64,000 nt of DNA, from NCBI GenBank assembly GCA_964521955.1, contig CAZFTX010000001.1:42386-106385 (forward strand), given 5' to 3'. A program made the position numbers and the translations under genes. How positions within the stretch are numbered: the first letter of the stretch is position 1; each line of letters opens with the position of its first letter. Origin of the DNA: an uncultured Candidatus Saccharibacteria bacterium (lineage in GTDB: Bacteria; Patescibacteriota; Doudnabacteria; UBA920). Positions 4,606-63,081 of this stretch are shown here, piece by piece. Under the pieces are notes generated by a model. It was given only the letters and a program-made list of their open reading frames with translations, was not told the origin of the DNA and did no database searches.

Positions 4606-4805
4606 AAGAAACCACTCCGACGTCCGCCAAAGGCGGAGTCCGGAGCCCCGATCCAAAGGCGTCGGGGCAGAGACGAAGATTACACAAATACTTCAAGATG
4701 TATTATACCAAATTTATAAAAATGATAAAAGAAAATTAGGTCGCCTTTACTTAACAACAAAGTTATGATTAAAAAACTTACCGCACCAAAGTCGAAAAAG
4801 ATGCG

Positions 4806-5852
4806 TTAGTTGAGAATATTAAAAAGCTTGATTCGCTTTCTTAGGTTTTGCGACCGACAGTGTTTTAAAACCCCGAGATAAGAACTTACTGTTTGTTTTA
4901 ATTTTTCAAGACTTATCTCTTCCCGTGTAAATTTAACAATTTTTCCATCGAGCTTTCTTAACATTCTATTTTTTGCTTTAGTTCGTAGGGACTGTCTATA
5001 AGGTAAAACTACATAGCCAAGAAAGTCTATTCCACGAGTTAGCTTATTCAAAAAAATCTTTTTAGGGTGCAGATTAAGTTTTAAATTTTCAGACAGGTAC
5101 GTTTCCATCTGGGGGATCAAGCCTTCCAGATATTTTTTATTATCGCTTACCATCACGAAATCATCTGTATAGCGTATGTAATATCTTACTTTCAGTTGAT
5201 GCTTAATAAATTTATCAAAGTTGTCGAGGTAAATGTTAGCGAATATTTGTGAAGTTAAGTTGCCAATCGGCAGTCCCTTGGCTAAATTTACTTGAAAACT
5301 ATCAATAATTTGATCAAGTAATTTCAATGCATTATGATCCGTGACCCGCCGTCGCAAGAGATCTTTGAGAATCGTATGGTCAACAGAAGCAAAAAATTTT
5401 CTAATGTCACATTTTAAGTAATAACATGGGCGGCGGTAATTCTGGCTAACTCCTTTTGTAAAGTTTTCCAAACGTTTAACCGCACGGTGAGTCCCTTTTC
5501 CGATACGGCAGGAGTAAGAATCGTAAATCAAGGTATGATCGAACAACGGGTATAAATTCCGAAAGACGGCATGATGAACAATTCTGTCACATACAGTTGC
5601 TTTGTGGATCTGGCGCAACTTAGGATCAAAGATAAGAAATGACTCATAAGGCTGGTGGGTATAAGTGTGGTTGACTAATTCATGGCGTAATTGAAAAAGG
5701 TTGTCCTCGAGGTTGCGTTCAAAATTCTGAACGTCAGGCTTACCCCGTTTACCAGCTTTAAATTCCTGCCATGACAATAATAAATTATCTAAACTAGTAA
5801 TTTGTTCAAATAATGTATGAGTTACATCCATAATGAAATTCCTATAATACAA
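4806..5852 (-). CDS. DGR-type reverse transcriptase
   Basis: 348 aa, compact for an RT. Motifs: FDPKLRQIHKATVCDRIVHHA (RT1/2), SYSCRIGKGTHRA, IRYTDDFVMVSD (YxDD catalytic) and GYVV thumb. It sits next to a cognate TR/VR. An alternative start is M8 (MDVTH, 5831). Confidence 0.9.
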   Translation of the reverse strand: MYYRNFIMDVTHTLFEQITSLDNLLLSWQEFKAGKRGKPDVQNFERNLEDNLFQLRHELVNHTYTHQPYESFLIFDPKLRQIHKATVCDRIVHHAVFRNLYPLFDHTLIYDSYSCRIGKGTHRAVKRLENFTKGVSQNYRRPCYYLKCDIRKFFASVDHTILKDLLRRRVTDHNALKLLDQIIDSFQVNLAKGLPIGNLTSQIFANIYLDNFDKFIKHQLKVRYYIRYTDDFVMVSDNKKYLEGLIPQMETYLSENLKLNLHPKKIFLNKLTRGIDFLGYVVLPYRQSLRTKAKNRMLRKLDGKIVKFTREEISLEKLKQTVSSYLGVLKHCRSQNLRKRIKLFNILN

Positions 5853-6167
5853 AAAACTTACGACCTATATAAAACAAATTACGAATATACAAAAACTTTC
5901 CCAAAAAGTGATAAATACGCCTTAGGCGAAAAATCTAAAGCAATTATTTTAGAGCTGCTAGAATTGCTAGTTGAGGCAGAAAATGCCAAGCGCGAATGGA
6001 AAGAACCAATTTTGGCAAAAGCCAGCAACAAATTAGCAGTTTTAAAACTTATGTTCCGGCTCGCCAATGAAACCAAAATCTTAGACAGCAAAAAATATTT
6101 GTCTTTAACCGACAAAAGTTTGGAAGTCGGCCGGATGCTCGGCGGCTGGCTAAAATCCGTTAAGTAG
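5817..6167 (+). CDS. avd: Avd-like accessory variability determinant (four-helix-bundle protein, TIGR02436-like)
   Basis: 116 aa and basic. Motifs FPKSDKYALGEKSKA and ...GRMLGGWLKS match the Avd / 23S-IVS four-helix-bundle family. It is encoded on the opposite strand to the RT and target, and its 5' end overlaps the RT start by 15-36 nt. Confidence 0.75.
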   Translation: MSYIHNEIPIIQKTYDLYKTNYEYTKTFPKSDKYALGEKSKAIILELLELLVEAENAKREWKEPILAKASNKLAVLKLMFRLANETKILDSKKYLSLTDKSLEVGRMLGGWLKSVK

Positions 6168-6216
6168 CCAAGGGCTCGGGTAAATCCCGAACCCTTGCGC
6201 CAAAAGAATAGACGTA

Positions 6217-6346
6217 ACGAGAAGCGACCCACGGCCGAACCGAAGTTGTGATTGGCATTATCGGTCCAGTTGTTGTCGAAGTTGAGCTTGTCATCGTTCC
6301 AGTACCAGTACAGCGAGTTGTTGAACTGGTCATCGGCATCCGGGTG
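6217..6346 (-). repeat. DGR template repeat (TR)
   Basis: About 130 bp, about 85% identical to 6746-6875. Of the 20 differences I could align, 19 sit where the TR has A on the minus strand (T on the plus strand as given). The TR reads as the Asn-rich template ...DADDQFNNSLYWYWNDDKLNFDNNWTDNANHNFGSAVGRFS. Confidence 0.85.
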
Positions 6347-6677
6347 ATTGTCTGGCTTCATCTAAAGCTGAAAAAGAAAAAATATCCTAATCCAGTCCCC
6401 AGGCCAAGCCGAGGAAAAATTTGTGGCGTCTTAAAACGCACTAAAGCCAGACAAGTAGTGTCTATCCTTTCTAAACTCACTTCTTAAAAGCAAAAGCTAT
6501 TTAAGAACTCTGGTTTAAAAAGTAAGGATTTCGGCGACCCTAATCCGTGGACAAGAGTGCATTAGCCTAATTTCCTTTTAAGTATACAGTAATTGTGGAT
6601 AACTAAAAAATTTTGCGAAGCAAGTATCAAGTATAGAAACATATGCAGAGGAAGTAATAAAATTTAAACAAAACAAA

Positions 6678-6730
6678 AGGACTTGGGAATCAAGAATCAA
6701 AAACAAATAGATTCATGATCCCAAGTCCTA
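6678..6730 (-). promoter_or_regulatory. stem-loop immediately 3' of the VR (DGR target-recognition hairpin)
   Basis: Inverted repeat aggacttggg(a)atc ... gat(c)cccaagtcct, a roughly 13-bp stem around a 25-nt AT-rich loop, about 15 nt beyond the target stop. It is absent from the TR copy. Confidence 0.6.
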
Positions 6731-6742
6731 AGTATCGAGCGA

Positions 6743-6875
6743 CTACGAGAAGCGACCCACGGCCGAACCGAAGCAGTGAAAGGCATCATCGGCCCAACCG
6801 CTGCCGAAGCCGAGCTCGTCATCGCTCCAGTACCAGAACAGCGAGTCGACGAACTGGTCATCGGCAACCGGGGCG
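6743..6875 (-). repeat. DGR variable repeat (VR) at the 3' end of the target gene, including the conserved IMH-like block
   Basis: The VR encodes ...VADDQFVDSLFWYWSDDELGFGSGWADDAFHCFGSAVGRFS*. Every TR AAC (Asn) position is a different residue in the VR. The last 27 nt (cttcggttcggccgtgggtcgcttctc on the coding strand) are identical in TR and VR and GC-rich, as expected for the conserved 3' IMH block. Homology stops there. Confidence 0.85.
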
Positions 6876-7866
6876 TAGCTGTTAGCCGGGCAGTCGATGC
6901 CTAGGTACTCGAACTTCGACATCCGGTCGGGCTGAGTAGCTATAGTGCTGCCGGTCATGATGCAGTCCTGGGGGAATTGGTTCTCCGCAAGAACGACCTT
7001 GACCCGGGACAGCCGTACCGAATGGCCGCTGTAGCTGTTGCCGGTGTTGGCACCGGCCGGAGCGAAGCAGAAGTCATCGTCCGTGGTCTCATGGAGTTTC
7101 TGCCACGTGATGATGCCTGCGGGTGTGAGCCGGACGTACTGGGCCGAAAGCTGCCCGTCGCGCCTGTTCTTGAAGCCGTGCTTGCCGAAAACCTTGCGGT
7201 AGGCCTTGCCGACTTCGGGAACGAAGTTGGCGACAACGGAGGCATAGGCTTCGCGTCCTTCGTCCGTGGTAGCGAGCGGATCGCCTTTGATGCCAAACAA
7301 CTTGGCCAGCGTGGAAAGCTTAAACCAGATCGGGATACCTTCGGTACCTTCTCCGGCCTTGGCTTCCTTGGCGAGCTTGAGGGCGGTGGCGACATTCAGC
7401 GTGGTCTTGGAGCCGAACATGTCGCGAGCGAGAGCCTGGTAGGCCGAGACATCTTCTTCCACCGGCAGGTATTTCCAGTCCGGCGGCGGCGTGAAGTGCT
7501 TTTCGGTCGAGATCTCGCCGTCGTAGAGTCCGGCAATGAACGGCCGGGCAATGGCGAAGGTTTCGGGTTGCAGGAAACAGCAAGCCTCGATCTGATCGAG
7601 CAGAACGTAAAACGGCACCTCGCTAGCCATCTGGTTGAACATGCCAGGCTCGCGGGTTTCCAAAGACAGGAACTGTCCGAGGGTTTCCGGCGTCAGCCAA
7701 GTCACTTGGAACGGCAAGCTGTCCTTGTAAGCCTGGAGAGCCTTGGCCAGTTCGGCATCAAACCGCGTGTTGTCACCTTTGTTTACGCGATCGGTTGCTT
7801 GACCGAGCGTGCGCAGGAGAGACTCCCGCTGTTCCAAAGCACCCTGATTTACAGTAGCGCTCATGA
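6743..7866 (-). CDS. DGR target (variable) protein with C-terminal VR, probably a C-type-lectin/FGE-like ligand-binding fold
   Basis: GC-rich ORF (about 57% GC against about 34% for the genome). Preferred start is the ATG at 7866, preceded by AAGGAGG. The ORF track extends to a TTG at 7996, which would add a hydrophobic leader MKLAFLLAILIAG. The C-terminal 45 aa are the VR. Confidence 0.8.
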
Positions 7867-8066
7867 TTGACCTCCTTAGTGGTCTGTTGTGTGCAAGTTG
7901 ATTTAGCCACGAGGACAAGTCCCCGAAGCTGGTTCTCACTTCCGATGAAATGAGCGTTCCGGCTATCAAAATCGCCAGCAAGAACGCTAATTTCAAAGGT
8001 TTAAAATTAGCGTATAATTATACCTGTTTTTTTAACTCCTGTCAAGGACTCCCTTTTCACAGAAAT

Positions 8067-9158
8067 TTACTTGGCAGTTTTTTCCAAATATTTTCCCACA
8101 AATTCGTCTAACTCCCCTTCTAAAACACCTTCAGGATCAGTTGACTCAAAGTTAGTTCTGTGGTCTTTAACCATTTTGTAAGGATGCAGAACGTAAGAAC
8201 GAATTTGGTTTCCCCATTCAGCGGACTTAAACTCACCCCTTAACTCAAGCTTTTCTTTTTGCAACTTTTCTTCTTCTAAAGCTTTTAATTTAGACATTAA
8301 AATTTTCATAGCCAATTCACGATTTTGATGCTGGCTTCTTTCATTTTGAATATTCACCCTTATTCCGGTTGGAATATGAGTAATGCGTATGGCCGAATAT
8401 GTTGTGTTTACACTCTGTCCCCCGTGACCAGAAGCCGTATTGGCTTCAATTTTTAAATCCTTAGGATTAACTTCAAACTTTTCTTTTTCTTCCAAAACCG
8501 GAAGTAGCTCTAAAAGCGCAAAAGAAGTCTCCCTTGTATGAGCCGGATTAAAAGGTGAAAGCCTAACCAAACGGTGCACCCCCGCTTCGCTTTTAAAAAG
8601 TCCGTAAGCAAAAGGACCTTTTACTTCCACCACTGCCGTTTTAACTCCGCCTTGTTCACCCTTTGAAAGTTCCAAAATTTCCGTGCTAAAACCTTTTTTT
8701 TCACTGTAACGCAAAAACATTCTTAAAAGCATCCCTGCCCAGTCTTGTGCATCTACCCCGCCGGCGCCACTGTGAAGGGAAAAAATTGCGCTATGGTCGT
8801 CATACTTTTTAGACAGCAAAGCCACAAAACGGTTTTTACTATACTCCTTTTCCAAAGTTTCAACTTGCTCTTGTAAATATTTTTTTGTTTCTTCTGACTC
8901 GTCTGTATTTTGCTTAACCAAATTTAAAGTTTCCTGAATATTTTTTTCTAAAGTATTCCAAAACTCTACAAATTTTTGCAGTTGGTTAAACTCCTGAGAA
9001 ATACTCTGTGCATGCGCGGAGTCGTTCCAAAAGTCAGAACCCTGCATTAAGTCTTGCAATTCCAAAGCTCTCTGCTCTTTTTGCGGCAGGTTTAAATGTG
9101 ACTTTATTTCTTCAACTTCTAAAAGTAGCTTTTCTAACTTTGAAATCAAATCTTTCAT
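8067..9158 (-). CDS. prfB: peptide chain release factor 2
   Basis: 363 aa. GGQ motif (ASGHGGQSVNTT) and the RF2-type SPF tripeptide region (RLSPFNPAHTRETSFA). Single uninterrupted ORF; no +1 frameshift site is evident. Confidence 0.85.
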   Translation of the reverse strand: MKDLISKLEKLLLEVEEIKSHLNLPQKEQRALELQDLMQGSDFWNDSAHAQSISQEFNQLQKFVEFWNTLEKNIQETLNLVKQNTDESEETKKYLQEQVETLEKEYSKNRFVALLSKKYDDHSAIFSLHSGAGGVDAQDWAGMLLRMFLRYSEKKGFSTEILELSKGEQGGVKTAVVEVKGPFAYGLFKSEAGVHRLVRLSPFNPAHTRETSFALLELLPVLEEKEKFEVNPKDLKIEANTASGHGGQSVNTTYSAIRITHIPTGIRVNIQNERSQHQNRELAMKILMSKLKALEEEKLQKEKLELRGEFKSAEWGNQIRSYVLHPYKMVKDHRTNFESTDPEGVLEGELDEFVGKYLEKTAK

Positions 9159-15774: not shown

Positions 15775-16134
15775 ACTTTAAGTTAAAATTAATTACTTAG
15801 ATATTCTACTATACTTATTTATATGAGTCTACATTATCATACATCAGCGCTATCTGCTCCTATCAGAGAATCCGCGGACGTTTTATTGACAAAATTTAAA
15901 GCTTAATATAACATAACTGCAATATGTTCATATTCACTATTTCCCCAATTAAGAATGCAATGAAGTCTTCCTTGAAGACCATGCTTTTGGGGTTAGTCAG
16001 AAAATGAAACTTTAACCAAAATAAATTTTCTAAAACCAACCCCTCAAGCATAGCTAAAGAAGAGGGGTTTTATAATACTTACATTTCCACTTGCCGAAAG
16101 CACTTTTAACAAAAAAGTTTTTTCGGGAGGTGGC

Positions 16135-16423
16135 AATGCCAGAGCCATTCAAAGCTAAGGTTACGGCTATGGATCGGGGCCTTTACTGGATACAACCAGT
16201 AGGAATGAACGAACAAGCCAGGGTGACAGTCATAGCAATCAAGCATGGACGCAACGAAACGCTCTTGATTTTCCACCCGGCAATACCCGCCGGGCAACCG
16301 AAGGGCGAAGTACAACATTTCAGCGCTGTGATCCCGCGAAACTCGGAACAGCACACAACTTGGTGCTTACCGGGAAAACTCTCTGAAGAGGAGTACAAAA
16401 AACTTACTCCGAAAGAGGAGTAA
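16135..16423 (+). CDS. hypothetical small protein (GC-rich island 2)
   Basis: GGAGG 5 nt upstream of the ATG. Local GC about 50%. No family match recognised. Confidence 0.45.
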
Positions 16424-16537
16424 TAACAAGGAGGAAAGAACAAAGAAATCACAACACACGAAAAGCGGCCCTAGAAAGGCTTGTCACTCAATATCCGCAC
16501 CGGGAAATGAGCATGACAAGCGAGGCCGCTTTTTCAA

Positions 16538-16566
16538 TTGACACAAATCTAAATTTTTCCTATCAT
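16538..16566 (+). promoter_or_regulatory. sigma70-like promoter (TTGACA-N17-TATCAT)
   Basis: Consensus -35 with 17-nt spacing and a near-consensus -10, inside the GC-rich island upstream of 16767..17090. Confidence 0.45.
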
Positions 16567-16654
16567 TCCCACATGAGACAACTTTCATCCATTGTCATTA
16601 TTATAAGCATTACTTCCTTCCAGGCAATGGGCTGAGTTCTTTAAAGTATTGTAA

Positions 16655-16693
16655 CCGTCCCGCCCTTGCTACAAAGGGCGAGACGGTTTTTTG
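16655..16693 (+). terminator. rho-independent terminator-like hairpin
   Basis: ccgtcccgccctt / aagggcgagacgg, a 13-bp stem with one mismatch, followed by TTTTTTG. Confidence 0.5.
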
Positions 16694-16766
16694 TTCCCTG
16701 CTAAGGGCTACGTTGTAGCCTTTGGCTGGTTACAAAACCAAAAAGACAACTTGAGAGGAGAGGACA

Positions 16767-17090
16767 ATGAACACACTTAGTTTTTCGGGAGATGGCCTCA
16801 TAACGCTTCAAGAACAGCGAGCGTTACTAAGCCGCCAAACCTTCCGGATCGTAGCCGGTCAAAATGAACAAGCGTTCTCCGTGGTTTCAGTCAGCCAGCA
16901 TTCTGTTGGCATTTTCTTAGTGGAATTAGTACACCAAGACAACATTCCCTGGTATGGAATCTTGATGATTCAGGATAATCCCGGACAAACAATCATGGTC
17001 CTACAATCCGAAGCGCCACAAGACCGCAACGATTGGAACCGTCTCATTCACCAGGCCAGGCTGATTTCCCAAGGCAACCCCAACCACTAA
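16767..17090 (+). CDS. hypothetical small protein (GC-rich island 2)
   Basis: GAGAGGAGAGG SD-like purine run before the ATG. 107 aa with no recognised domain. Confidence 0.45.
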   Translation: MNTLSFSGDGLITLQEQRALLSRQTFRIVAGQNEQAFSVVSVSQHSVGIFLVELVHQDNIPWYGILMIQDNPGQTIMVLQSEAPQDRNDWNRLIHQARLISQGNPNH

Positions 17091-17100
17091 GCAAAACGAA

Positions 17101-17140
17101 AATCGGCGCCCTCCACATGGAGGCGCGCCGATTTTGATTT
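17101..17140. terminator. bidirectional rho-independent terminator
   Basis: cggcgccctcc-acat-ggaggcgcgccg GC-rich hairpin flanked by gattttgatttt. Lies between the convergent 16767..17090 (+) ORF and the giant gene (-). Confidence 0.6.
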
Positions 17141-20100
17141 TAATCATCTAAAGATATATTTTGATTCACTACGCCTTGATTGTCTACTTTTATTATCTGA
17201 TTTTTCAACAAAATAACTTTATCTTCAACTGTCTGCATTACCCTAAGTATATATTCCCCTTTTGGCGCTTTTAAGAAAAATCTTCCTTTTTCATTTGTCA
17301 TTGCCTTACCCAATACAACAGAGGGGATTGATTTAGGACTAATCTCAATTATTAAGAAGTGTGTAGGATGATTTTGGCTAGTTAAGGAGCCCCAAAGTTT
17401 ACGATGTGGAATAAACCTTTTTAGAACAAATAATAACCCAAAAACACTCACAAAAATTAAGCCAAATAAATTTGGTTTCAACAACAGAGTCAGAAGGGAA
17501 AAACTTGCACTTCCCCAAAATATTATTTCAAGAATCACATGAAAGAAAGTTTCTAAACGTGGATGGAAATTTACATATTTTAACTTACCAGTCTGGTTCC
17601 AATCAAATGCTAAAGGGTCCATGGGAATATTCGGTGACAATACTTCCCCACTTTTTGTAATTTGCATTAATTCACCATGATATAAATTATCAAAAACCCC
17701 GTCCATTTTACCCAAAATCCTAACAGAAGGAAATTGATAATTGGTTTTTTTTGCTTTTATCAAAAAATTTCCTGGCTTATCCATAAAACCAAAACGTCCG
17801 CTTAAATCGGTTATGGCTTGCTCCGTAACTTTACCTGTTTCAAAATTTATCATTTCTACAATTACTGGATCCAAAGGCTGCTTAGTAACAGAGTCATACA
17901 CTGTACCCCAATAGCGACGTCTTCGTCTTAAACCAAAACTACTCATTAAACCTTGTAATGTCGCAACAATATGGAGCCAAAATTCGGTTAAATTGGTAAA
18001 GTTACCAAGCAACCCATATTTTGCCAAACTATATTCCATTACCAAAGAAGAAGGCGCTACAACCAAAGCAGAAACTGAAACTGCTAATTTTGTTTCAAAT
18101 TCTTGTAAAAATAAAGTACTTCCTTGTTTTAGAATTTTTTCTAAAGGTTGTATTGAAGTCTTGGAAACTGTAACTATTGTATCCTTAATAAAGTTGCCGG
18201 CGCTACTCAAACCTGAAACTAAGCCTTCTGAAACCGAAGCTACACTACTGGAAATGTTTTCAAATAAATTTGCTAAAGGTAGGTTGTTTGAAAGAGGCCC
18301 AGGACTAGCATCTGGCACTGGGGGAGTGTTTTGAGGAACCACCACTACAGGAGTTTCAATAGGTGGGTTTTCAATAACAACCACGGGAGGAGAAACTTGT
18401 GGCTCAACAACATTTACCAGTGCATCTTCAGCAGGTTCAACCAACACGCTAGCAAAACTTTCTACACTATTTACACCTCTCGTAACTTTAACTCTTATAG
18501 TATAAGCACCCGCTTTTGCAAAATTACAAACATTTCTATGAGTAACAAATTCGTTAGTTGTTCTTCGGGTTAACTCGTAAATGCCGTCATTTGTACAGTC
18601 ATACTCATAAGTAATTTGCCCTTTTGCTGTCCCAGAAACCGCAACTCTTAAACTTACGTTATTTAAAGGCTCCTCCCCAACCAATTTATCTGACCAAATC
18701 TTGCGATCCTTAGAAACAGTTAGTATAGCTGCTAAGGGCAAATTTTCAACCAAAGGAGGGTTAGGAGTTGGAGTTTTATCTTTAACCAAAAGCTGAATAC
18801 CGGAACTCACAGTTTGTTTTGCTTGCATTTGACTATTAAAATATTTTACATAAACTGTATAAAAACCAGCTCGACATGTTTTTTGTTCACACAAATTCCA
18901 CTGAGTGGACGTTGTGAATAATTGCAAAACCGCATTTTTAAAATCTGGCGTGTTTGAAATTGCCATATATGCAGTATCTGCGGTCGCTTGAAGAGTTAAA
19001 GTAGTTAGACTATCTACAGTTGTGCTCGCTCCAGCGTTTATAACTACACCAAATCCTCCCTCTAAAGGAGTTGGTACACCACCACCACCTCCGCCTCCTC
19101 CACCGCCTCCAGACCCTTCATCGTCTAAAGTGGAACAAGCAGCTGTTGACTGAGTTGTTGTTGAAGTGTAAGCAGTTTCTATATCACTACTGTTTCTAGC
19201 TTTAACTACAAAATCATATGAAGTACCACAAGTCAAGCCAGAAAAAATCTGAGATGTTGAAGAGCTCCAATCAGGACTAGTTGATGCAGTTGCATTTAAA
19301 ACATAGTATTCTGTCCCTGCCGGATTACTATTTGCATTCCACGAAGCAGTCAACTGTGTTTGAGAGTCTTGATTTAGACTTAAAGAAGTTGGTAAGTTTG
19401 CCAAAGTATAAATTGAAATTGTGACAGTAGAAGCATAATTACCGGCAACATCAAACACGTCGGCATAGAAGGTATAGGGAGTATTGGGAGTTAAGCCAGA
19501 AGAAAGCCAAGACAAAGCAGAAGTCGCGGAAGAATTTGTACCTGTAGTGGAGTTATTAAAAACGTAAGAAGCTGTTGCCAAACCAGACAAAGAATCCGAA
19601 GCTCCTGAAATTGTGGCCGTCAAAGAAGTTGGTGAGGTAGTTGCTAAAGTCAAACTACCTGCAGTAGGAACGACAGTGTCTAACTTAAAAGCAACCGCAC
19701 CAGAATTAGCTGTAGCATATGAAGAATTGGCTCCCAAATTATCTATAGTTTTCACTCGCCAATAATAACCATCTGAAGAATCGCTTAAAACCTGTCCAGT
19801 TGTACCCGTTGTGTAAGTTCCCGTACTGGTTGCTTGCCCAACTGTAAAACTAGCGCTACCTTGAGTCGCTGTTGCCGAAGTATAATCCAATAACAAAGTA
19901 GAAAAAGAGGAACTTGTAGAAATTTCAATCTTATATCGCACCGTATTGCCAACATCAGGGTCAGTAAGATTGAAAGTAAAAGTAGGAGTATTATCGTTTA
20001 TCCAACTTCCACCCACAACCGTTGATGGCCCAAGCGAAGTTGGGCTATTGGGTGCGTTATCAGAAATTAAGCTTAACTCTGGTAAATTTGCATACGAATC

Positions 20101-23100
20101 CAATACTGTCCCATCACTGTAAACCATCCTAAAATAATACGTTGCACCAAGTACGACATTACTTGGATCCAATACCCAATCATACTCTATATACTGTCCG
20201 GCATTTACCGCAAAAGGGTTTAAAGCTGTTGGATTCCCTTCCTGATAGGAACCTAAAATATCGGACGAAGGAAGTAAAACTGTAGAAATAGTTGTCGAAG
20301 AAGTTACTGAAGCATTATTATAAAAGTTCCATTGTGTACTGGTTGCACTTTGTTCCGTCTCAAAAGTACTGAAAATTCCTGCACCATTTTTATATTCTGC
20401 CTGTATCCAGCTTGGAGAGCGCACACTTGAAGAAAATCTTAATTCGTCAATTACTCCTGAAAAAAAGCCCATACCAGAAGCGCTGTTTGATCCAAAATAA
20501 TATCGGTCACCACCCGTCCAAAGCGTTGCTATAGAAGCAGCGGTTCCTTCTTCAACTCCGTTTAAATATACCCTCATATTTCCGCTGTTTTGTGCGACAG
20601 CTGTAACATAATACCAATTTGAAGGAGTTAATACGGTAGTTCCAAATACCGTTTTTGTTCCACCGTCAAAGGTATAAGATTCTATTGTGCCGGTAGCATT
20701 CATTCTCAACTGGTGTGACCAAGCAGCACCTGGTCCCGCGCTAGTAGTCCTCACAAAAATATTTATAGCAGTCGCATCAACCGGTTTAATCCATGCTGAA
20801 ATTGTATATGCAGTCGGATCCGTAGCATCGTTAATAATCACCCTATCATTGGAACCATCAAAATATTGTGCGCCATCCGAAATTTCAGTAGATGTGGCAT
20901 TTGGCTCAGTTGTTGAAAGCTTGGTTCCAATAATATTATTTGAAGTTGAGTCGTCTATAGTAGTGGTTGCAGTAGTGTCGTTTAAATGATGGACAAATCT
21001 AAAACCGCTATCCCATACCCCAGTCGTTGTAGAATTATCTGTCGCTCCCGGATTGTTATAATACATCCAAATATAATCGGTACTTGAAGCGCTACTAATT
21101 TGCGGAACTTTTACCCATACTGTTGAAGTTGAAGTTTCGTCCCATTTTTCAATTTCATAATTCAATAGAGTTGACCCGTCTGAGTCAACAAAACGAATAT
21201 CTTGTCCACTGTTTTGGGTTTTACTGTAATCAATATTACTACTTTCATTTAAATTAACCAGTACAGGAAAATCTGTTAAATTTTCGGTTGCAGAAGAATT
21301 ATTAAATACAATTTTCCTTCTATTTAACCAACTGTGGTCATACCATTCATCCGGATTTATACTAACATCGTTCCAATTTGAATTCGTGTATGACGAAACC
21401 TGAAGTTTAAAATTTGAAGTTGTAGTTGATAAATTATAATCGCTAACTAATAAATTCATTCTAAGCCTAATAGGACTTGATGTAGAAATTATTACCACAG
21501 ACGAATTCAAAGCACCTATATCTACTGTTGGCTGTAATTGGTTAATATTTTCATAAAATCTATAATCTCCTTGAGAAATAACCGCTTCAAAAATCCAGCC
21601 CTCATTATTACCCGAATCTGTTGAGTAAGTGCTTTGAGCATTAATATCTGAAGCATTGATATTGTAGGAATCTTTAACATCCAAATAAGAAATGCTTTCT
21701 GTGGCCTGCGAGTCTATCCTGGCTTGGGTGCCTGAGGCAGTACTTCGGATTGATAATACTCCCCCGCTTGCGCCGGTTAAAGTTAAGGTATTGGCAATCG
21801 TCTGAGTAGAAGTTGCGCTAAAGTACAGTGTAGCGGCCGTGGTGCTAGATTTGGTTAAATTATAATAAGTGGAAGTTCCAAAAATATATTGGTCAACGCC
21901 ATTTAAGTTAACAGTACCGTTATTATGGGTAAAGGTACTGGCGTCATTAAAAAAGTTTCCGGCAATATTCAAAGTAGAGGAAGTAGCTGTATAAGTCCCG
22001 CCACCAGATAAAGTCAAATGTTTATAATTGTAGTCTTTTATACTGACACTACTAGAAGTTGAATAAATGGCAGTTGAACCGCTTTGAAATTCTGGATAGG
22101 AACTATTAGTAGTAATAGTCTCCCCTCCCTGAAGTTTAAAAGTACCTCCGTCTTGAACTATTAATGTCCCGGAAGAACCGTTAACTGTAAGATTATATCC
22201 GTTAATATTAAAAGCACCCTCTACTATATTCAAGTCCTGCGAAGCTGCATCTAAAGTCAAAGCTGAGACTAACTGGACTTCGCCCCCTGATTTGTTAACA
22301 GTAATATCCCCATTGAAAATCCCTGTCGCACCAGTAAGATCAAATGTTTGTGTCGCTGAACCACCAAATGTTAGGGCTGTAGTACCGCCGTCAAAACCAG
22401 ACAAAATCCGAACACTCCCCCTTGCTTCCACGGTACCTGTATTCAAACTTCCGTCGGATAAAATTAAATCACCAGTAGCAACTAAAGTGTCATCAGAAGT
22501 AATTGTCCTAGAATAATTTCCCACTGAATTGTTAAACTGGAGTCTTTCAAAAGTCTGACTAGAATTAATATTAATAATACGACCACCTCCATCAGCGGGT
22601 CCAAAAACTGTAGATGAAGCGGAAACAAAAGTTCCCCCAGAAATTGTAAAGTAATCAGTAAAAGTTGTGGTGCTATTGCTACCCACAAAAGAACCGCCAG
22701 ATAAAGTAAAAGAACCAGAAAGTGTAAAAGTATAATTTCCTTGAGTATAAGTCCCGGCCGCCTGCTCCCAACTACCAGAGCCACCACTTCCAATAGTAAC
22801 AGCATAATTTCCAGCATTAGAAATTGGTATAGTACCCAAAAAATCAGGGGTAGTAGTAACACCAAAAAGAGAACTTGCCGTATTAAATAATATAGTATCC
22901 GTTGCGTCCGCTGCACTATTTAATCTTACTATCAAACCCGAACCTCCACTCAAAGACAAAGTTTGATTGACACTATCATTACCAAAATCCAAAACTGTTG
23001 TACCCCCGTCAAATGTAGAAGATTGATAAATATTACCCCTAACATCGACAGTGCCTGTATTCAAACTTCCGTCGGATAAAATTAAATCACCAGTTACAAT

Positions 23101-25749
23101 TAAAGTATCCCCTGATGTAATTGTTCTAGAATAATTTCCCACTGAATTGTTAAACTGGAGTCTTTCAAAAGTCTGACTAGAATTAATATTAATAATACGA
23201 CCACCTCCATCAGCGGGTCCAAAAACTGTAGATGAAGCGGAAACAAAAGTTCCCCCAGAAATTGTAAAGTAATCAGTAAAAGTTGTGGTGCTTGACCCTC
23301 CAACAAAAGTTCCGGAAGCCATTGTAAAATTTCCAATAACAGTAAAAGTATACCCATTTCCCTGAGTAAGCGTACCTGTATAACCTGCGGACATTGTAAG
23401 GCCGGCTATTGTGGTTGTGGTTGCTATTGTCGGACTACAATTAGTTACACAAGTATTGTCAAAAGTTGCTGTATCAGATGAACCAGGCACAATGTCACTA
23501 GACCAATTAGCCGCTGTTGTCCACTGAGCATCTCCACCTCCTCCGTCCCAAACGTATGCCGCATTAAAAGCTTCTGCACTCGCATCGCCGAATTGAAAAT
23601 TGAGTTTATGATTTGCGGTCCGCAAATCTAAATGAGAAACAGTTGCCACTTCACTACAATTCCAGTTTGGATAAAAAATTATATCCCCTTCTAAGATTTG
23701 TGCTCCACTAGTCCTATCTTCTTCACCACAAGTTAAAGTTGCAAACTGCATGTCATTTACAGTAGCCTGGTCCGCTGGAGTAATAATTAAATTTTCAGTA
23801 CCAACAGTTGTAAAATCTACATTCCAATATTCTCCCGCCACCGGTTGGGAGTGAATATTTAAAACTTGTATTTCTACTGTTGGGTCAACCACTACAGGAT
23901 AAACTGCTGTTTTTAGCCAGTTTTTATCTGGAGTCAAAGTAAGTAAATTTTTATTTACAGCAAACTTTAAACTCTTACTAATCTCACCTTCACTGTCAAT
24001 CATGTAAGGAGCAGACAAAACATATAAGAGTTTTAAAGACTTTCCTTTATACCCTTTTTCATAAAGTTGAATTTTTGAATCAGACTCCTGTATATAATCA
24101 AATTCATCTAAATTCAATAAATACCTAAAACGACTCGGGTGGTTTTTATTTTTTAAAACAATTGCTTCTTTCAAGCCCGACTCAGTTATCTCATATTCCA
24201 CATCTGTGTTTAAAAATGCTTCTTTATATGCAACTTTGTTATCAAGCCTCTCAGCAGTTGTAGAAGGCCTAGTGCCTGCCATTACCATCTGTAGTTTAGG
24301 AGATTGGTTCAAAGTGTTATTCCCAGAAAAAACAATTGGATTATCCAAATTTCCTGGCAAACTTAAATCCAAAGCCTCATTGGAAAATGACATCTTCAGA
24401 AACCCTTCGGGATCAAGCAACTTCGGAGACATCTCCAAGAGCTCGGTGTCAGTCAATTCACCCTTTTCTTGTTCATATCTAGTTTCCAACCAAACAGAAT
24501 CTAGAAAGAGTAAATCTTGGTTTTCACCTTTAAATTCAAAAGGTAACTGGTAAGAAAGTCTAATTTTCAACTCCGATACAAATTCAAAGAGTGCTTTTGA
24601 TAATGGTATATTAATAAACCCATTGTTCTGCAAATTCGAAACTCCTTTAGTTAAATCTATCTCAACCAATGACTGCCAAGTCGTGCTGGTAGTTTGATAT
24701 TCAACCAAAAGAACCGCTCCCGGCGTTTTTTTAGAAGCTAACGATAAATTTAAAGCAAAGCTTGAAAGAGTTTCGAAATCAAGTAAAGATAAATCTTGTG
24801 AGGAAAAATTAAAATATTCCAGTTTTGGAGAAGAAATTTTAGAATAAGTCTGTATTGGATCAGACTGCTTTTCAGGAATTATTTCTGAATCTTTATCTAA
24901 GATTATTTCCGGATTATTTAATTCACTAATTAAATTTTCAGATTGTGGTGTTGAAGTAGTAATTATTTCTTGAGTAGTGGTAGAAAGAAGTAAGTCATCA
25001 TAAACCAAATTGGTCTCGGTTGATGTTGGAGTTTTTCCAAAACTTTCATTTTCTGAATCACTTAATTCATCAGCGTTTTCTGAAACTAATGCTTTAAATT
25101 TTTGATTGGTTGAAAATAAATCTTTATCATAAAAATTTGTCGTTGTAGAATTTCTCTGTTCCTCAATTTGGGATACAGGTTCTTCTTTTTTATTTTCAAC
25201 ATCTAAATCTGTTTGTACCAAAATAATTTCTTGTGTCCATGCTGTTATTTCTGTTGAGCTACTTTTTACTTCCCCATCTGTTATCTTTTTTTGTTCTTCT
25301 GAAGTTTTATTTAGAGTTGGATCCTTTAATTCAGTTTTTAAATTTTCAGTTTCTAAAACACTGTCCATACTTGAAGTAGACAAAGGAATTTCTAAAGGTT
25401 CAGAAATTTGATTTTCTATTCCATTTTTAAAATTAAGAACCGTAGAATTAAAATCAGTAAACTCACTTAAAGACTGTTCTGGTCCTAAGTCGTTTTTAAA
25501 TGCCTGATTTGGATTTATCCATGAAAGTGTGGAAAGTGTATCTGTTGCAGTTATTGTTACTGAGCCTTTGGGAAAATATTGTTGAATAACAATATTACTT
25601 TCTAAAATTTCCGCATCTTTCAAAGCTTCGTTTGAAATTACCGAGGCAGCAAAAATTTGAGTCGGTATTGAAAATACAAGTAAAAAAATTACAAAATTTT
25701 TACATGTTGTAATGAATGTTTTTTTAATTTTATTTAGAATTATTTTCAC
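17140..25749 (-). CDS. giant secreted/surface protein (2869 aa) with LamG/concanavalin-like domain, beta-rich repeats and a C-terminal membrane-anchor module
   Basis: N-terminal signal peptide. Two near-identical internal repeats of about 100 aa. A LamG-like segment (…WYYVTAVAQNSGNMRVYLNGVEEG…IDELRFSS). A poly-Gly linker. The C-terminal ~350 aa contain CarboxypepD_reg-like domains plus TM helices, homologous to ORF 30924..31868. Confidence 0.85.
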   Translation of the reverse strand: MKIILNKIKKTFITTCKNFVIFLLVFSIPTQIFAASVISNEALKDAEILESNIVIQQYFPKGSVTITATDTLSTLSWINPNQAFKNDLGPEQSLSEFTDFNSTVLNFKNGIENQISEPLEIPLSTSSMDSVLETENLKTELKDPTLNKTSEEQKKITDGEVKSSSTEITAWTQEIILVQTDLDVENKKEEPVSQIEEQRNSTTTNFYDKDLFSTNQKFKALVSENADELSDSENESFGKTPTSTETNLVYDDLLLSTTTQEIITTSTPQSENLISELNNPEIILDKDSEIIPEKQSDPIQTYSKISSPKLEYFNFSSQDLSLLDFETLSSFALNLSLASKKTPGAVLLVEYQTTSTTWQSLVEIDLTKGVSNLQNNGFINIPLSKALFEFVSELKIRLSYQLPFEFKGENQDLLFLDSVWLETRYEQEKGELTDTELLEMSPKLLDPEGFLKMSFSNEALDLSLPGNLDNPIVFSGNNTLNQSPKLQMVMAGTRPSTTAERLDNKVAYKEAFLNTDVEYEITESGLKEAIVLKNKNHPSRFRYLLNLDEFDYIQESDSKIQLYEKGYKGKSLKLLYVLSAPYMIDSEGEISKSLKFAVNKNLLTLTPDKNWLKTAVYPVVVDPTVEIQVLNIHSQPVAGEYWNVDFTTVGTENLIITPADQATVNDMQFATLTCGEEDRTSGAQILEGDIIFYPNWNCSEVATVSHLDLRTANHKLNFQFGDASAEAFNAAYVWDGGGGDAQWTTAANWSSDIVPGSSDTATFDNTCVTNCSPTIATTTTIAGLTMSAGYTGTLTQGNGYTFTVIGNFTMASGTFVGGSSTTTFTDYFTISGGTFVSASSTVFGPADGGGRIININSSQTFERLQFNNSVGNYSRTITSGDTLIVTGDLILSDGSLNTGTVDVRGNIYQSSTFDGGTTVLDFGNDSVNQTLSLSGGSGLIVRLNSAADATDTILFNTASSLFGVTTTPDFLGTIPISNAGNYAVTIGSGGSGSWEQAAGTYTQGNYTFTLSGSFTLSGGSFVGSNSTTTFTDYFTISGGTFVSASSTVFGPADGGGRIININSSQTFERLQFNNSVGNYSRTITSDDTLVATGDLILSDGSLNTGTVEARGSVRILSGFDGGTTALTFGGSATQTFDLTGATGIFNGDITVNKSGGEVQLVSALTLDAASQDLNIVEGAFNINGYNLTVNGSSGTLIVQDGGTFKLQGGETITTNSSYPEFQSGSTAIYSTSSSVSIKDYNYKHLTLSGGGTYTATSSTLNIAGNFFNDASTFTHNNGTVNLNGVDQYIFGTSTYYNLTKSSTTAATLYFSATSTQTIANTLTLTGASGGVLSIRSTASGTQARIDSQATESISYLDVKDSYNINASDINAQSTYSTDSGNNEGWIFEAVISQGDYRFYENINQLQPTVDIGALNSSVVIISTSSPIRLRMNLLVSDYNLSTTTSNFKLQVSSYTNSNWNDVSINPDEWYDHSWLNRRKIVFNNSSATENLTDFPVLVNLNESSNIDYSKTQNSGQDIRFVDSDGSTLLNYEIEKWDETSTSTVWVKVPQISSASSTDYIWMYYNNPGATDNSTTTGVWDSGFRFVHHLNDTTATTTIDDSTSNNIIGTKLSTTEPNATSTEISDGAQYFDGSNDRVIINDATDPTAYTISAWIKPVDATAINIFVRTTSAGPGAAWSHQLRMNATGTIESYTFDGGTKTVFGTTVLTPSNWYYVTAVAQNSGNMRVYLNGVEEGTAASIATLWTGGDRYYFGSNSASGMGFFSGVIDELRFSSSVRSPSWIQAEYKNGAGIFSTFETEQSATSTQWNFYNNASVTSSTTISTVLLPSSDILGSYQEGNPTALNPFAVNAGQYIEYDWVLDPSNVVLGATYYFRMVYSDGTVLDSYANLPELSLISDNAPNSPTSLGPSTVVGGSWINDNTPTFTFNLTDPDVGNTVRYKIEISTSSSFSTLLLDYTSATATQGSASFTVGQATSTGTYTTGTTGQVLSDSSDGYYWRVKTIDNLGANSSYATANSGAVAFKLDTVVPTAGSLTLATTSPTSLTATISGASDSLSGLATASYVFNNSTTGTNSSATSALSWLSSGLTPNTPYTFYADVFDVAGNYASTVTISIYTLANLPTSLSLNQDSQTQLTASWNANSNPAGTEYYVLNATASTSPDWSSSTSQIFSGLTCGTSYDFVVKARNSSDIETAYTSTTTQSTAACSTLDDEGSGGGGGGGGGGGVPTPLEGGFGVVINAGASTTVDSLTTLTLQATADTAYMAISNTPDFKNAVLQLFTTSTQWNLCEQKTCRAGFYTVYVKYFNSQMQAKQTVSSGIQLLVKDKTPTPNPPLVENLPLAAILTVSKDRKIWSDKLVGEEPLNNVSLRVAVSGTAKGQITYEYDCTNDGIYELTRRTTNEFVTHRNVCNFAKAGAYTIRVKVTRGVNSVESFASVLVEPAEDALVNVVEPQVSPPVVVIENPPIETPVVVVPQNTPPVPDASPGPLSNNLPLANLFENISSSVASVSEGLVSGLSSAGNFIKDTIVTVSKTSIQPLEKILKQGSTLFLQEFETKLAVSVSALVVAPSSLVMEYSLAKYGLLGNFTNLTEFWLHIVATLQGLMSSFGLRRRRRYWGTVYDSVTKQPLDPVIVEMINFETGKVTEQAITDLSGRFGFMDKPGNFLIKAKKTNYQFPSVRILGKMDGVFDNLYHGELMQITKSGEVLSPNIPMDPLAFDWNQTGKLKYVNFHPRLETFFHVILEIIFWGSASFSLLTLLLKPNLFGLIFVSVFGLLFVLKRFIPHRKLWGSLTSQNHPTHFLIIEISPKSIPSVVLGKAMTNEKGRFFLKAPKGEYILRVMQTVEDKVILLKNQIIKVDNQGVVNQNISLDD
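22425..23300. repeat. intragenic direct repeat: two ~265-bp copies (22425-22690 and 23035-23300), essentially identical, period ~610 bp
   Basis: Read directly: identical stretches including ...tcccactgaattgttaaactggagtctttcaaaagtctgactagaattaatattaataatacgaccacctccatcagcgggtccaaaaactgtagatgaagcggaaacaaaagttcccccagaaattgtaaag... occur twice. They also produce identical spurious antisense ORFs. Confidence 0.8.
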
Positions 25750-56863: not shown

Positions 56864-57181
56864 ATGCCCCATCAACCCGCTATCGCCACTCAGGTTTCCT
56901 GGTTAGCGATAAGAAGGATTCGGGAACAAACCGATTCCACCAACAAAAGTCATCCTGGGCAGTCTCACGCCAGCGCACGTAAAGCAGAATTGCGCTCTGC
57001 TCGCAGAAAAGAACATGGTGCGAGCATTGCGAAAATCGGACTGCAACAGGTCATGGAAGAAGAGGACAAGCGGTTTCAAAACGCCAAAAAATTCATGACC
57101 GGAGGCACCAAACCGACCACTATCACCGCCGCCAATCCTGTCATGAAAGCTCCGTCGTATTCAGGTCGTTACTACTACTGA
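56864..57181 (+). CDS. hypothetical small basic protein (GC-rich island 4)
   Basis: CAAGGAGG SD; 105 aa; no recognised domain. Confidence 0.4.
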   Translation: MPHQPAIATQVSWLAIRRIREQTDSTNKSHPGQSHASARKAELRSARRKEHGASIAKIGLQQVMEEEDKRFQNAKKFMTGGTKPTTITAANPVMKAPSYSGRYYY

Positions 57182-62006: not shown

Positions 62007-62098
<92 letters not shown>

Positions 62099-62233
62099 CG
62101 ACCTCTCCAAATACTTACATATTTTACTTAAAAAAAGCCTATTGGTCAATAAAAATACGGACGGGGGTCAGAGGCCTTAGCCTTCAGCCCGCCGTCCGCG
62201 AATTTCGGTCTTGCGAGAGAACTGTGGTTGCGG

Positions 62234-62827
62234 TTAGAGCGCCGAGACCTTCGAAAGCACTTTCGCCCAGCCGTCGGGGTGCAATCCCAGTTCCACACCT
62301 TCCAAGGTATGATAACTGAAATATTCCCGAGACAAATCAAAAGTGCCTTTAACTGCGCAGACCGCAAGGTCAATCATCGGGCCATGACCGAAGGCAACGC
62401 CCAACTCACCTTCTTCAAGCTGCGCAAACATCTGGGAGACTCCACCTCGGACAATTTCTGCCCACTCATCCACCACCTTTGCCACTCCATGACATGCGAG
62501 CATGGCATGAATGTTCCCTCCCGAAGCTGCAAGCGCCCGAAACGTGCTAGGCGACGTAATTTCAGAAAGCAACTCCTTAGTGCCAATTTGGGAAACAACA
62601 GGCGCAACCCTACCCACATGCCCGTGCCCCACAATGAACGAAGCCGCGGTCTGAGCCGTGCAGACATGCGGTCCGTGAAAAACGCAATCAATCCCAAACC
62701 GATCACTCATTGCACGATACGCAAGCCCAACATCACGGGCTAAATCTAATCCAGCAAGACTGAGGAATTTGAGCGATTCGCTCGCTTCTTCATCGGCATC
62801 GGCATGAGTGAGATAAATCAATCTCTT
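62234..62827 (-). CDS. hypothetical protein, weakly SixA/histidine-phosphatase-like (GC-rich island 6)
   Basis: The N-terminus MKRLIYLTHADADEEASESLKFLSLAGLD parallels SixA (IMRHGDAALDAASDSVRPLTTNG), but RHG is replaced by THA. AAGGAGAAGGAA SD. About 58% GC. Confidence 0.3.
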   Translation of the reverse strand, partial: KRLIYLTHADADEEASESLKFLSLAGLDLARDVGLAYRAMSDRFGIDCVFHGPHVCTAQTAASFIVGHGHVGRVAPVVSQIGTKELLSEITSPSTFRALAASGGNIHAMLACHGVAKVVDEWAEIVRGGVSQMFAQLEEGELGVAFGHGPMIDLAVCAVKGTFDLSREYFSYHTLEGVELGLHPDGWAKVLSKVSAL

Positions 62828-63081
62828 CATTTCCTTCTCCTTCTTCATTTCAGATTTCGGACACAACAGGCAAGGGTCAAAAAACCACTACCCGTTGTGT
62901 CCAACTTAAAAAGAAGAAAACTAACCGCAAATTGTTAAAGTTCATTCGCAAATCACATTTCAGGCTTAAATCCGTCTACCTTTGGTAGACAAACTTAGGC
63001 ACCAAACCGTGATCTAGCATTATAGCACTTTTTTTGCTCCTTGTCAATGGTGATCTTTTCATACTTGCTATGCTAAGATTT

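Follow-up and report, generated by a model that had tools for sequence, protein, structure and literature searches.

The 64-kb window examined here (the whole analyzed stretch of contig CAZFTX010000001.1, from an uncultured Candidatus Saccharibacteria bacterium placed in Doudnabacteria) contains a GC-rich stretch that is the hypervariable-protein gene, or target, of a complete and compact diversity-generating retroelement (DGR). This gene is out of compositional equilibrium with its genome, and its history appears to be partly separate from those of the two other genes of the cassette, the accessory gene avd and the reverse transcriptase (RT) gene. The explanation that we favor, with moderate confidence, is that the cassette arrived recently as a unit, that its target came from a GC-richer, recombining pool, and that the target is now ameliorating toward the composition of its host.

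On the minus strand, the elements of the DGR are ordered promoter, leader, target with a C-terminal variable repeat (VR), spacer, template repeat (TR), hairpin, inverted avd, and RT. The target gene (6743 to 7864, minus strand) encodes 373 residues, comprising an N-terminal helical region and a C-terminal C-type-lectin-fold domain. The C-terminus, which carries the VR, has the C-type-lectin/FGE-like (CLec) fold that marks members of this protein class. A Pfam search on the target matched no family, FGE-sulfatase included, and a Foldseek search against the PDB gave no significant match. The VR occupies the last ~42 target codons (6745 to 6872, minus strand) and pairs with the TR (6217 to 6344, minus strand; 25% A) as a 128-nt repeat of 84% identity. 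Nineteen of the 20 mismatches fall at TR adenines, and the lone other difference is at TR position 76 (6269 in the TR, 6797 in the VR), where the TR has C and the VR has T. The final 29 nt are identical in the two repeats and resemble an initiation of mutagenic homing (IMH) element (...CTTCGGTTCGGCCGTGGGTCGCTTCTCGT). Remote additional VRs were rejected, as the TR 3' end occurs just twice in the window.

The avd gene (5817 to 6167, plus strand; 116 residues) matches Pfam bAvd (PF22296, E=4e-22) and is conserved in homologous cassettes. The RT gene (4806 to 5831, minus strand) matches RVT_1 (E=2e-20) and contains the motifs IGNLTSQ and YTDD, which correspond to [I/L]GxxxSQ and YxDD, signatures of DGR-type RTs. 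From residue 1 onward, this RT is 71 to 76% identical to the RTs of two related loci, L002 and L009. The avd and RT genes are divergent, with start codons at 5817 and 5831, respectively, and share 15 bp at the 5' ends of their coding sequences. Because relatives conserve the N-termini of both proteins, each promoter must lie inside the other gene.

The compositional contrast is large. The whole window is 37.7% GC, while the stretch of the target open reading frame (ORF), 6743 to 7868, is 59.2%. A preliminary description of this DNA had recognized the island and given values of about 57% for the target, 34% for the genome, and 33% for RT and avd; the contrast holds, but each of these values was too low, as RT is 35.7% GC and avd 36.2%. 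Its claim that the part of the target outside the VR is just as GC-rich is also correct (0.588). The sliding-window and codon-usage analyses that it proposed show a cassette of non-uniform GC: in windows of 1,100 nt, GC has a mean of 0.377, a standard deviation of 0.042, and a maximum of 0.588 at 6801, making the target gene the highest GC peak and the strongest compositional outlier of the 64 kb. Within the cassette, GC is 0.625 in the VR, 0.531 in the TR, and 0.357 in the VR-TR spacer. The long ORF from 6743 to 7996 is at 0.581, and the interval 6170 to 7996 taken whole is at just 0.527 because it includes the AT-rich spacer. Thus, the atypical composition is confined to the target ORF and the TR rather than spread over the whole cassette; RT, avd, and the spacer are host-like. 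The shift is abrupt, and the GC boundary falls at the target stop codon.

Codon usage gives the same picture. GC at third codon positions (GC3) is 0.75 in the target (C3 0.46, G3 0.29, T3 0.16, A3 0.09), compared with 0.319±0.052 in host genes (n=42 ORFs, each of at least 150 residues), which places the target at z=8.3. Values for avd (0.39) and RT (0.35) agree with the earlier view that these two genes are host-like. The most depleted base in the target is A3 (0.09 versus ~0.33 in host genes), and T3 is low as well (0.16 versus ~0.37); overall, A and T are about equal on the coding strand. Depletion of coding-strand adenines by DGR mutagenesis alone is rejected because T3 is also depleted. 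GC3 is lower over the first ~46 codons and flat over the remainder, with no clear gradient centered on the VR along the target ORF. The amino acid composition is shifted too: residues G, A, R, and P (GARP) make up 0.28 of the target versus 0.15 to 0.24 of host proteins, and F, Y, M, I, N, and K (FYMINK) make up 0.23 versus 0.27 to 0.39. A 297-residue antisense ORF (6977 to 7870) was rejected as a real gene. In synonymous-codon shuffles, the longest antisense run averages 281 codons and 43% of shuffles reach at least 297, so the codon composition predicts such an ORF, and it is not kept open in lower-GC homologs. This agrees with the earlier suggestion that the overlapping ORFs are spurious products of high GC.

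The target also stands out in its expression signals. Translation starts at ATG 7864, since the N-terminal MSAT is conserved in 25 homologs, rather than at 7866 as first described; the perfect Shine-Dalgarno (SD) sequence AAGGAGG claimed for it is present, at 7877 to 7871, 6 nt before the ATG. RT and avd had been said to lack SD sequences. This is true of avd, RT has AGGA only, and an SD-like motif of at least 4 nt within 20 nt of the start is found in only about 1 in 5 host ORFs. Thus, SD-independent initiation seems to be the rule for most genes of this genome. The target promoter (8017 to 8045, minus strand) is a σ70 consensus, TTGACA-17-TATAAT, matching at 12 of 12 positions and invariant in six loci.

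Such signals raise the possibility that the GC of the target is kept high by selection acting on its mRNA or codon choice, which might favor strong expression, a stable RNA, or the absence of AT-rich signals. A perfect promoter and SD, set against a genome whose genes mostly lack SDs, the coincidence of the GC boundary with the stop codon, and the reduced GC3 of the first ~46 codons, as is seen in many expressed genes, all fit this idea. However, the genes for the highly expressed ribosomal proteins L11 and L1 are not shifted toward codons that end in C or G (GC3 0.31 to 0.32, C3 0.11 to 0.14), and translational selection of the host is excluded on this basis. In addition, the target codons are of the CCG, CTG, CGC, and GCC type that is usual in high-GC genomes, the shift extends to the amino acid composition, and two results given below, the GC→AT excess among private changes and the near-host composition of long-resident loci, point the other way. 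We therefore regard selection on the target mRNA as quite improbable.

The site of the cassette, between prfB and ftsE, bears on how it came to be there. The host prfB is closest to proteins of Candidatus Doudnabacteria and the "Patescibacteria group" (78% identity). In L029 and L030, two contigs of a relative whose prfB is 91% identical, prfB is followed directly by ftsE, with 83 nt between them and no cassette, and the synteny thyA-hyp-HD-DNMK-tmk-prfB-ftsE-ftsX-L9 is kept. Alignment of the junctions sets the limits of the insert at 8060 and 4739, a unit of 3,322 bp (minus strand; GC 0.452). On its left is the 9-bp sequence TAAATTTCT (8061 to 8069, minus strand), which includes the prfB stop codon and is present once in L029 (5627 to 5635); on its right is TAATTTTCT (4730 to 4738, minus strand), identical to the left copy at 8 of 9 positions and followed by intergenic sequence that matches L029. 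This imperfect direct repeat at both cassette ends has the look of a target-site duplication. Pairs of 9-mers that differ at one position are, however, frequent in DNA this rich in AT, and no similar repeat was verified in L002 or L022. The L029/L030 site holds neither RT and avd nor TR and target, so all four were gained (or lost) together as a 3.3-kb unit, and RT and avd have no better claim than the target to being residents of this site. As part of the explanation favored above, we consider the whole cassette somewhat more probably than otherwise a horizontally acquired insertion in a Doudnabacteria-like Patescibacteria genome. The only ORFs within the insert are target, avd, and RT, with no integrase or transposase among them, and there is no tRNA attachment site at the insert, the nearest tRNA gene being at 62017. 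The related cassettes L001, L002, and L025 adjoin genes for an integrase, a recombinase, or TraG.

These results bear on two readings offered in the preliminary description. That the target gene is compositionally foreign and laterally acquired is supported. One of its two scenarios was that RT and avd are long-term residents that locally captured a foreign GC-rich gene as their target. The match of RT and avd to host ORFs (GC 0.36 and GC3 0.35 to 0.39 versus 0.32±0.05), which the target does not share, speaks for local capture, as do the differences between target and RT in synonymous divergence (dS) and nearest neighbors that are described below. It is nonetheless highly improbable: the empty site has neither RT nor avd, the insert boundaries enclose all cassette genes, both the architecture and the split are found again in other hosts and neighborhoods, and the TR is target-like and GC-rich within the AT-rich half of the cassette, as in all relatives. 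The other scenario, acquisition of the whole cassette with the target under a different mutational pressure, is the one that these results favor, with either a different regime or a different history setting the target apart.

A more trivial explanation is an assembly chimera in which a GC-rich fragment of another organism was mis-joined into a low-GC contig. The source is metagenome-assembled, and the composition changes abruptly. This explanation is scarcely credible, as it would require two mis-joins ~1.2 kb apart, and the template from which the GC-rich VR differs at adenines is found 400 nt off, within the AT-rich part. Moreover, an independent Logan assembly (L021) shows the same joins, an identical arrangement, and an identical VR, and more than 10 other contigs have the same layout.

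The split in composition is found throughout the cassette family. A homolog search in 5.8 billion proteins yielded 44 full-length relatives of the target with 42 to 76% identity, and in an exhaustive HMM search 16 proteins scored below 1e-30, with ~600 more sharing only the C-terminal 150 to 250 residues. We compared 21 independent loci, whose hosts include metagenome-assembled genomes (MAGs) of Saccharibacteria and Doudnabacteria and whose flanks range from 0.33 to 0.50 GC. Target GC (0.49 to 0.60) exceeds flank GC in all 21, by +0.12 on average (range +0.06 to +0.22). In contrast, GC3 of avd, in the loci that have this gene, follows that of the host (r=0.82, mean difference -0.02), and the mean difference from host GC3 is -0.04 for RT and +0.23 for the target. 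Related cassettes all have the layout target-TR-(avd)-RT, and the TR is a target-like, GC-rich sequence within the AT-rich half in the window cassette and in all relatives. The neighborhoods vary: cassettes are found between uvrB and a Mur ligase gene, beside hisS and ftsA-ftsZ, or in integrase, recombinase, or TraG regions. Because every related cassette found shows the split, it is intrinsic to the family and not the product of a local capture. The preliminary description had proposed asking which lineage the homologs come from, with a low-GC lineage throughout counting against foreign origin. All of them do come from Patescibacteria-type contexts and none from a high-GC genome, every sampled host being at or below 0.50 GC; yet the homologs are themselves GC-richer than their hosts. 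The family was not found in IMG/VR, a search for carriage by phage.

The size of the excess depends on the state of the cassette. Intact cassettes have a target GC3 excess of +0.30, compared with +0.13 at loci with a degraded or lost RT or avd (Mann-Whitney p=0.003), and three long-resident Doudnabacteria loci (L004, L007, and L023) are almost host-like (+0.01 to +0.08). The larger excess in intact cassettes fits arrival followed by joint decay of target composition and cassette, and an activity-dependent process fits it equally.

Target relatives stand alone or with RT or avd remnants at L003 to L005, L006, L007, L010, L023, L024, L026, and L028. The remnants include an RT fragment covering residues 225 to 341 in the Doudnabacteria loci and a truncated avd in L001, L012, and L013. 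With so many target relatives lacking an intact RT or avd, orphaned ex-DGR targets evidently persist as intact ORFs.

Sequence divergence indicates that the target has not simply traveled with its neighbors. Between the same cassettes, the proportion of synonymous differences (pS) is ~0.5 for the target, 0.75 to 0.83 for RT, and 0.61 to 0.75 for avd, while nonsynonymous divergence (dN) is similar. Target identity is mosaic, ranging from 0.51 to 0.95 per 100-nt bin, and the nearest neighbor shifts between segments: RT groups L002 with L009, while the first 200 nt of the target group the window with L001, L009, and L025. The flanks of the target ORF are conserved. Spacer and TR are 85 to 100% identical between cassettes, and the leader, in the bin 7953 to 7858, is 91 to 92% identical to three of four related cassettes and 77% identical to L002. 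Thus, leader and spacer/TR could act as substrates for homologous exchange of the ORF that lies between them.

The private changes in the target run mainly toward AT. Among private synonymous third-position changes in the six targets of clade A, 84 are GC→AT and 20 are AT→GC, a skew that is probably exaggerated, as direction was assigned by majority-rule parsimony at pS ~0.5 in sequences of biased composition, a procedure that overcounts common-to-rare changes. The corresponding counts are 29 and 40 for RT and 16 and 17 for avd. On the private branch of the window target there are 12 GC→AT and 6 AT→GC changes, which misfits a long evolution under the host bias (binomial p=0.009). Taken together, these data place the target out of equilibrium and indicate a history partly separate from those of avd and RT.

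A different reading of the same family-wide data is that a target-specific, GC-raising process keeps the ORF GC-rich in whatever host it resides. One candidate is gene conversion biased toward GC at a recombination hot spot; the other is the occasional recombination of adenine-mutagenized cDNA that extends beyond the TR, which, if made from both sense and antisense transcripts, would deplete A on both strands. Several findings favor this reading. The split is present in 21 of 21 loci, including hosts at 0.33 to 0.38 GC, with avd and RT host-like; every clade is still above its host even though synonymous sites are saturated between clades (four-fold identity 0.23 to 0.31); the mosaic identity shows frequent recombination within the target ORF; no base is as depleted as A3; transcription of avd runs toward the TR and the antisense strand of the target; and the GC3 excess is greater in intact than in degraded cassettes. 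However, the private synonymous changes are mainly GC→AT, the opposite of an ongoing bias toward GC. In addition, GC3 shows no clear trend with distance from the VR, the spacer between the two repeats is AT-rich, the depletion of T3 besides A3 makes adenine mutagenesis of the sense strand alone insufficient, and L004, L007, and L023 are close to their hosts. The effects of GC-biased conversion reported in bacteria are also far below +0.2 to +0.4 GC3, which counts against this candidate. Thus, a GC-raising process is unlikely, though it deserves a serious hearing. In one form of this reading, the DGR itself, or recombination that it provokes, would generate the GC excess, with biased conversion acting over the whole target ORF. 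We think this rather improbable. If it is true, the GC3 excess would serve as a footprint and a clock of DGR activity, staying high as long as RT and avd are intact and decaying after their loss, and would not be the relic of a high-GC donor.

The explanation that we favor, recent arrival of a cassette whose target derives from a GC-richer pool, would work as follows. The whole cassette, not the target alone, would have inserted between prfB and ftsE, bringing a target ORF with high-GC codon usage and a GARP-rich composition together with an avd and an RT whose composition is near that of any host. GC-rich target alleles would be exchanged between cassettes by homologous recombination through the conserved leader and the spacer/TR, being drawn from a GC-richer pool outside the sampled genomes, and the target in this genome would now be drifting toward AT. 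Since the target is far from the synonymous equilibrium of the host, the arrival would be recent on the scale of synonymous turnover. A rough relaxation argument, which takes a host GC3 equilibrium of 0.32 and assigns to the private branch no more than about half the divergence between the window and L029, leads to the same suggestion: with neutral synonymous sites, a GC3 of 0.75 could not survive the whole private branch.

In addition to the probable exaggeration of the GC→AT skew, several points weigh against this explanation. The GC-rich source pool is hypothetical, because no high-GC genome with this family was found, and this is the main weakness. Across the family, identity declines roughly in step for target, avd, and RT, suggesting a long co-divergence that under neutrality should equalize GC3. 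The lower dS of the target may reflect constraint on synonymous sites instead of a younger age. At the insertion site, the sister genome is not very close (host-gene pS between the window and the L029 relative is 0.48 to 0.71), so the insertion is dated only loosely, and the absence of the cassette from L029/L030 is possibly a loss from the sister lineage. Finally, the loci are few and phylogenetically non-independent, and most are metagenome contigs.

The element is a member of the known DGRs of the Candidate Phyla Radiation (CPR)/Patescibacteria (the "CPR set", PMC5758913; DGR clade 2, Roux et al. 2021, PMC8144416). Its arrangement, TR-(avd)-RT, is cassette architecture B3 of Wu et al. 2018 (PMC5758913), who also reported that ~20% of DGRs deviate by at least 5% GC from their hosts and that TR and VR have GC-rich constant ends. 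Like other members, the window cassette has an RT, a reverse-oriented avd, a TR directly upstream, and one neighboring target whose C-terminus holds the VR. Also shared are TR/VR differences specific to adenines, constant GC-rich segments on either side of the mutagenized part of the repeats, and a chromosomal site in a Patescibacteria genome. Unlike them, it has a target that is GC-rich over the whole ORF and not in the VR alone, 6 to 22 GC points above the host across the family, while avd and RT are host-like; it has a ~400-nt VR-TR spacer conserved at the nucleotide level; and its limits are those of a 3.3-kb insertion between 9-bp repeats. The open-access literature searched yielded no description of such a GC split within a cassette.

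With the DGR of Bordetella phage BPP-1 (mtd-avd-TR-brt), the cassette shares an Avd protein, a variable protein of CLec fold whose C-terminus holds the VR, a hairpin closely following the VR, and, as predicted from its parts, the logic of mutagenic retrohoming, in which TR RNA would give rise to an A-mutagenized cDNA that is transferred to the VR. It differs from BPP-1 in gene order and avd orientation, in having no phage context and an unrelated N-terminal target domain, and in that the conserved RNA lies upstream of the TR and not only in the TR-RT spacer. Compared with TvpA of Treponema denticola and other CLec-fold or FGE-like DGR proteins, the target is without a Pfam match, and its residues 1 to 110 are specific to about 45 to 55 proteins. 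The cassette also resembles an ameliorating genomic islet of the Lawrence-Ochman type in its atypical GC and codons, its absence from a syntenic relative, its putative short flanking repeat, and its GC→AT drift. Unlike such an islet, it has one atypical gene beside two native-looking ones, and its site has no integrase, transposase, or tRNA.

The finding matters because DGR cassettes are usually treated as co-evolving units with a single history, and here the target is well above every host in GC. If target alleles are exchanged, targets would be a resource shared laterally among episymbiotic Patescibacteria, and calling DGR parts native or foreign from their composition would mislead. If instead a biased process linked to the DGR is responsible, this would count as a new mutational side effect of DGRs. 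In addition, the empty site with its 9-bp repeats is a concrete case for how a DGR cassette with no integrase moves between core-gene neighborhoods.

The noncoding parts of the cassette are conserved and probably structured. Similarity between cassettes starts at the -35 hexamer, with none upstream of the promoter. The ~150-nt leader of the target gene (7865 to 8010, minus strand), conserved in cross-cassette alignment, contains the predicted hairpin GGGGACTTGTCCTC as well as the SD sequence and may be a regulatory leader. Fourteen nucleotides past the target stop codon is an imperfect hairpin of ~20 bp followed by a T-run (6678 to 6729, minus strand). It is conserved and paired in five loci, and it would be either a terminator or the DGR hairpin that lies downstream of an IMH. 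The AT-rich VR-TR spacer of ~400 nt (6345 to 6744, minus strand) has 88% mean column identity and long invariant runs among five cassettes, those of the window, L001, L002, L009, and L025, whose synonymous sites are 50 to 80% different. It folds into several hairpins, a few of them with compensatory changes, and is probably a structured 5' part of the TR RNA. In relatives, an extended -10-like sequence, TGTATAAT, is located ~40 nt upstream of the most conserved part of the spacer. Directly after the TR is another hairpin (6170 to 6196, minus strand), in which 11 of 19 pairs are changed on both sides among five cassettes (alignment columns 563 to 609). It could serve as an avd terminator or as a priming or recognition element for the RT.

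Several other features of the window were observed. In the ftsE leader, upstream of ftsE, is a GC-rich palindromic segment of ~58 nt, CTGCCCCGACGCCTTTGGATCGGGGCTCCGGACTCCGCCTTTGGCGGACGTCGGAGTGG (~4606 to 4663, minus strand), where L029 has just 16 nt; it may be a small repeat or a MITE-like insertion. A second, smaller GC-rich islet (62100 to 62900, 0.50 to 0.55 GC) contains a 204-residue ORF (62234 to 62848, minus strand) with no Pfam match and adjoins tRNA-Ser (62017 to 62108), the only tRNA gene of the window and the only match to Rfam at gathering thresholds over the window. Two small ORFs of raised GC (0.48 to 0.51) are likewise without a Pfam match, 56864 to 57181 and 16091 to 17090 (both plus strand), and the former is preceded by a strong SD, CCAAGGAGGAT, of a kind seldom seen in this genome. 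Finally, a giant ORF of about 2,740 to 2,870 residues (17140 to 25749, minus strand) is rich in Ser/Thr repeats and has transmembrane-like segments at its end, and it probably encodes a surface protein.

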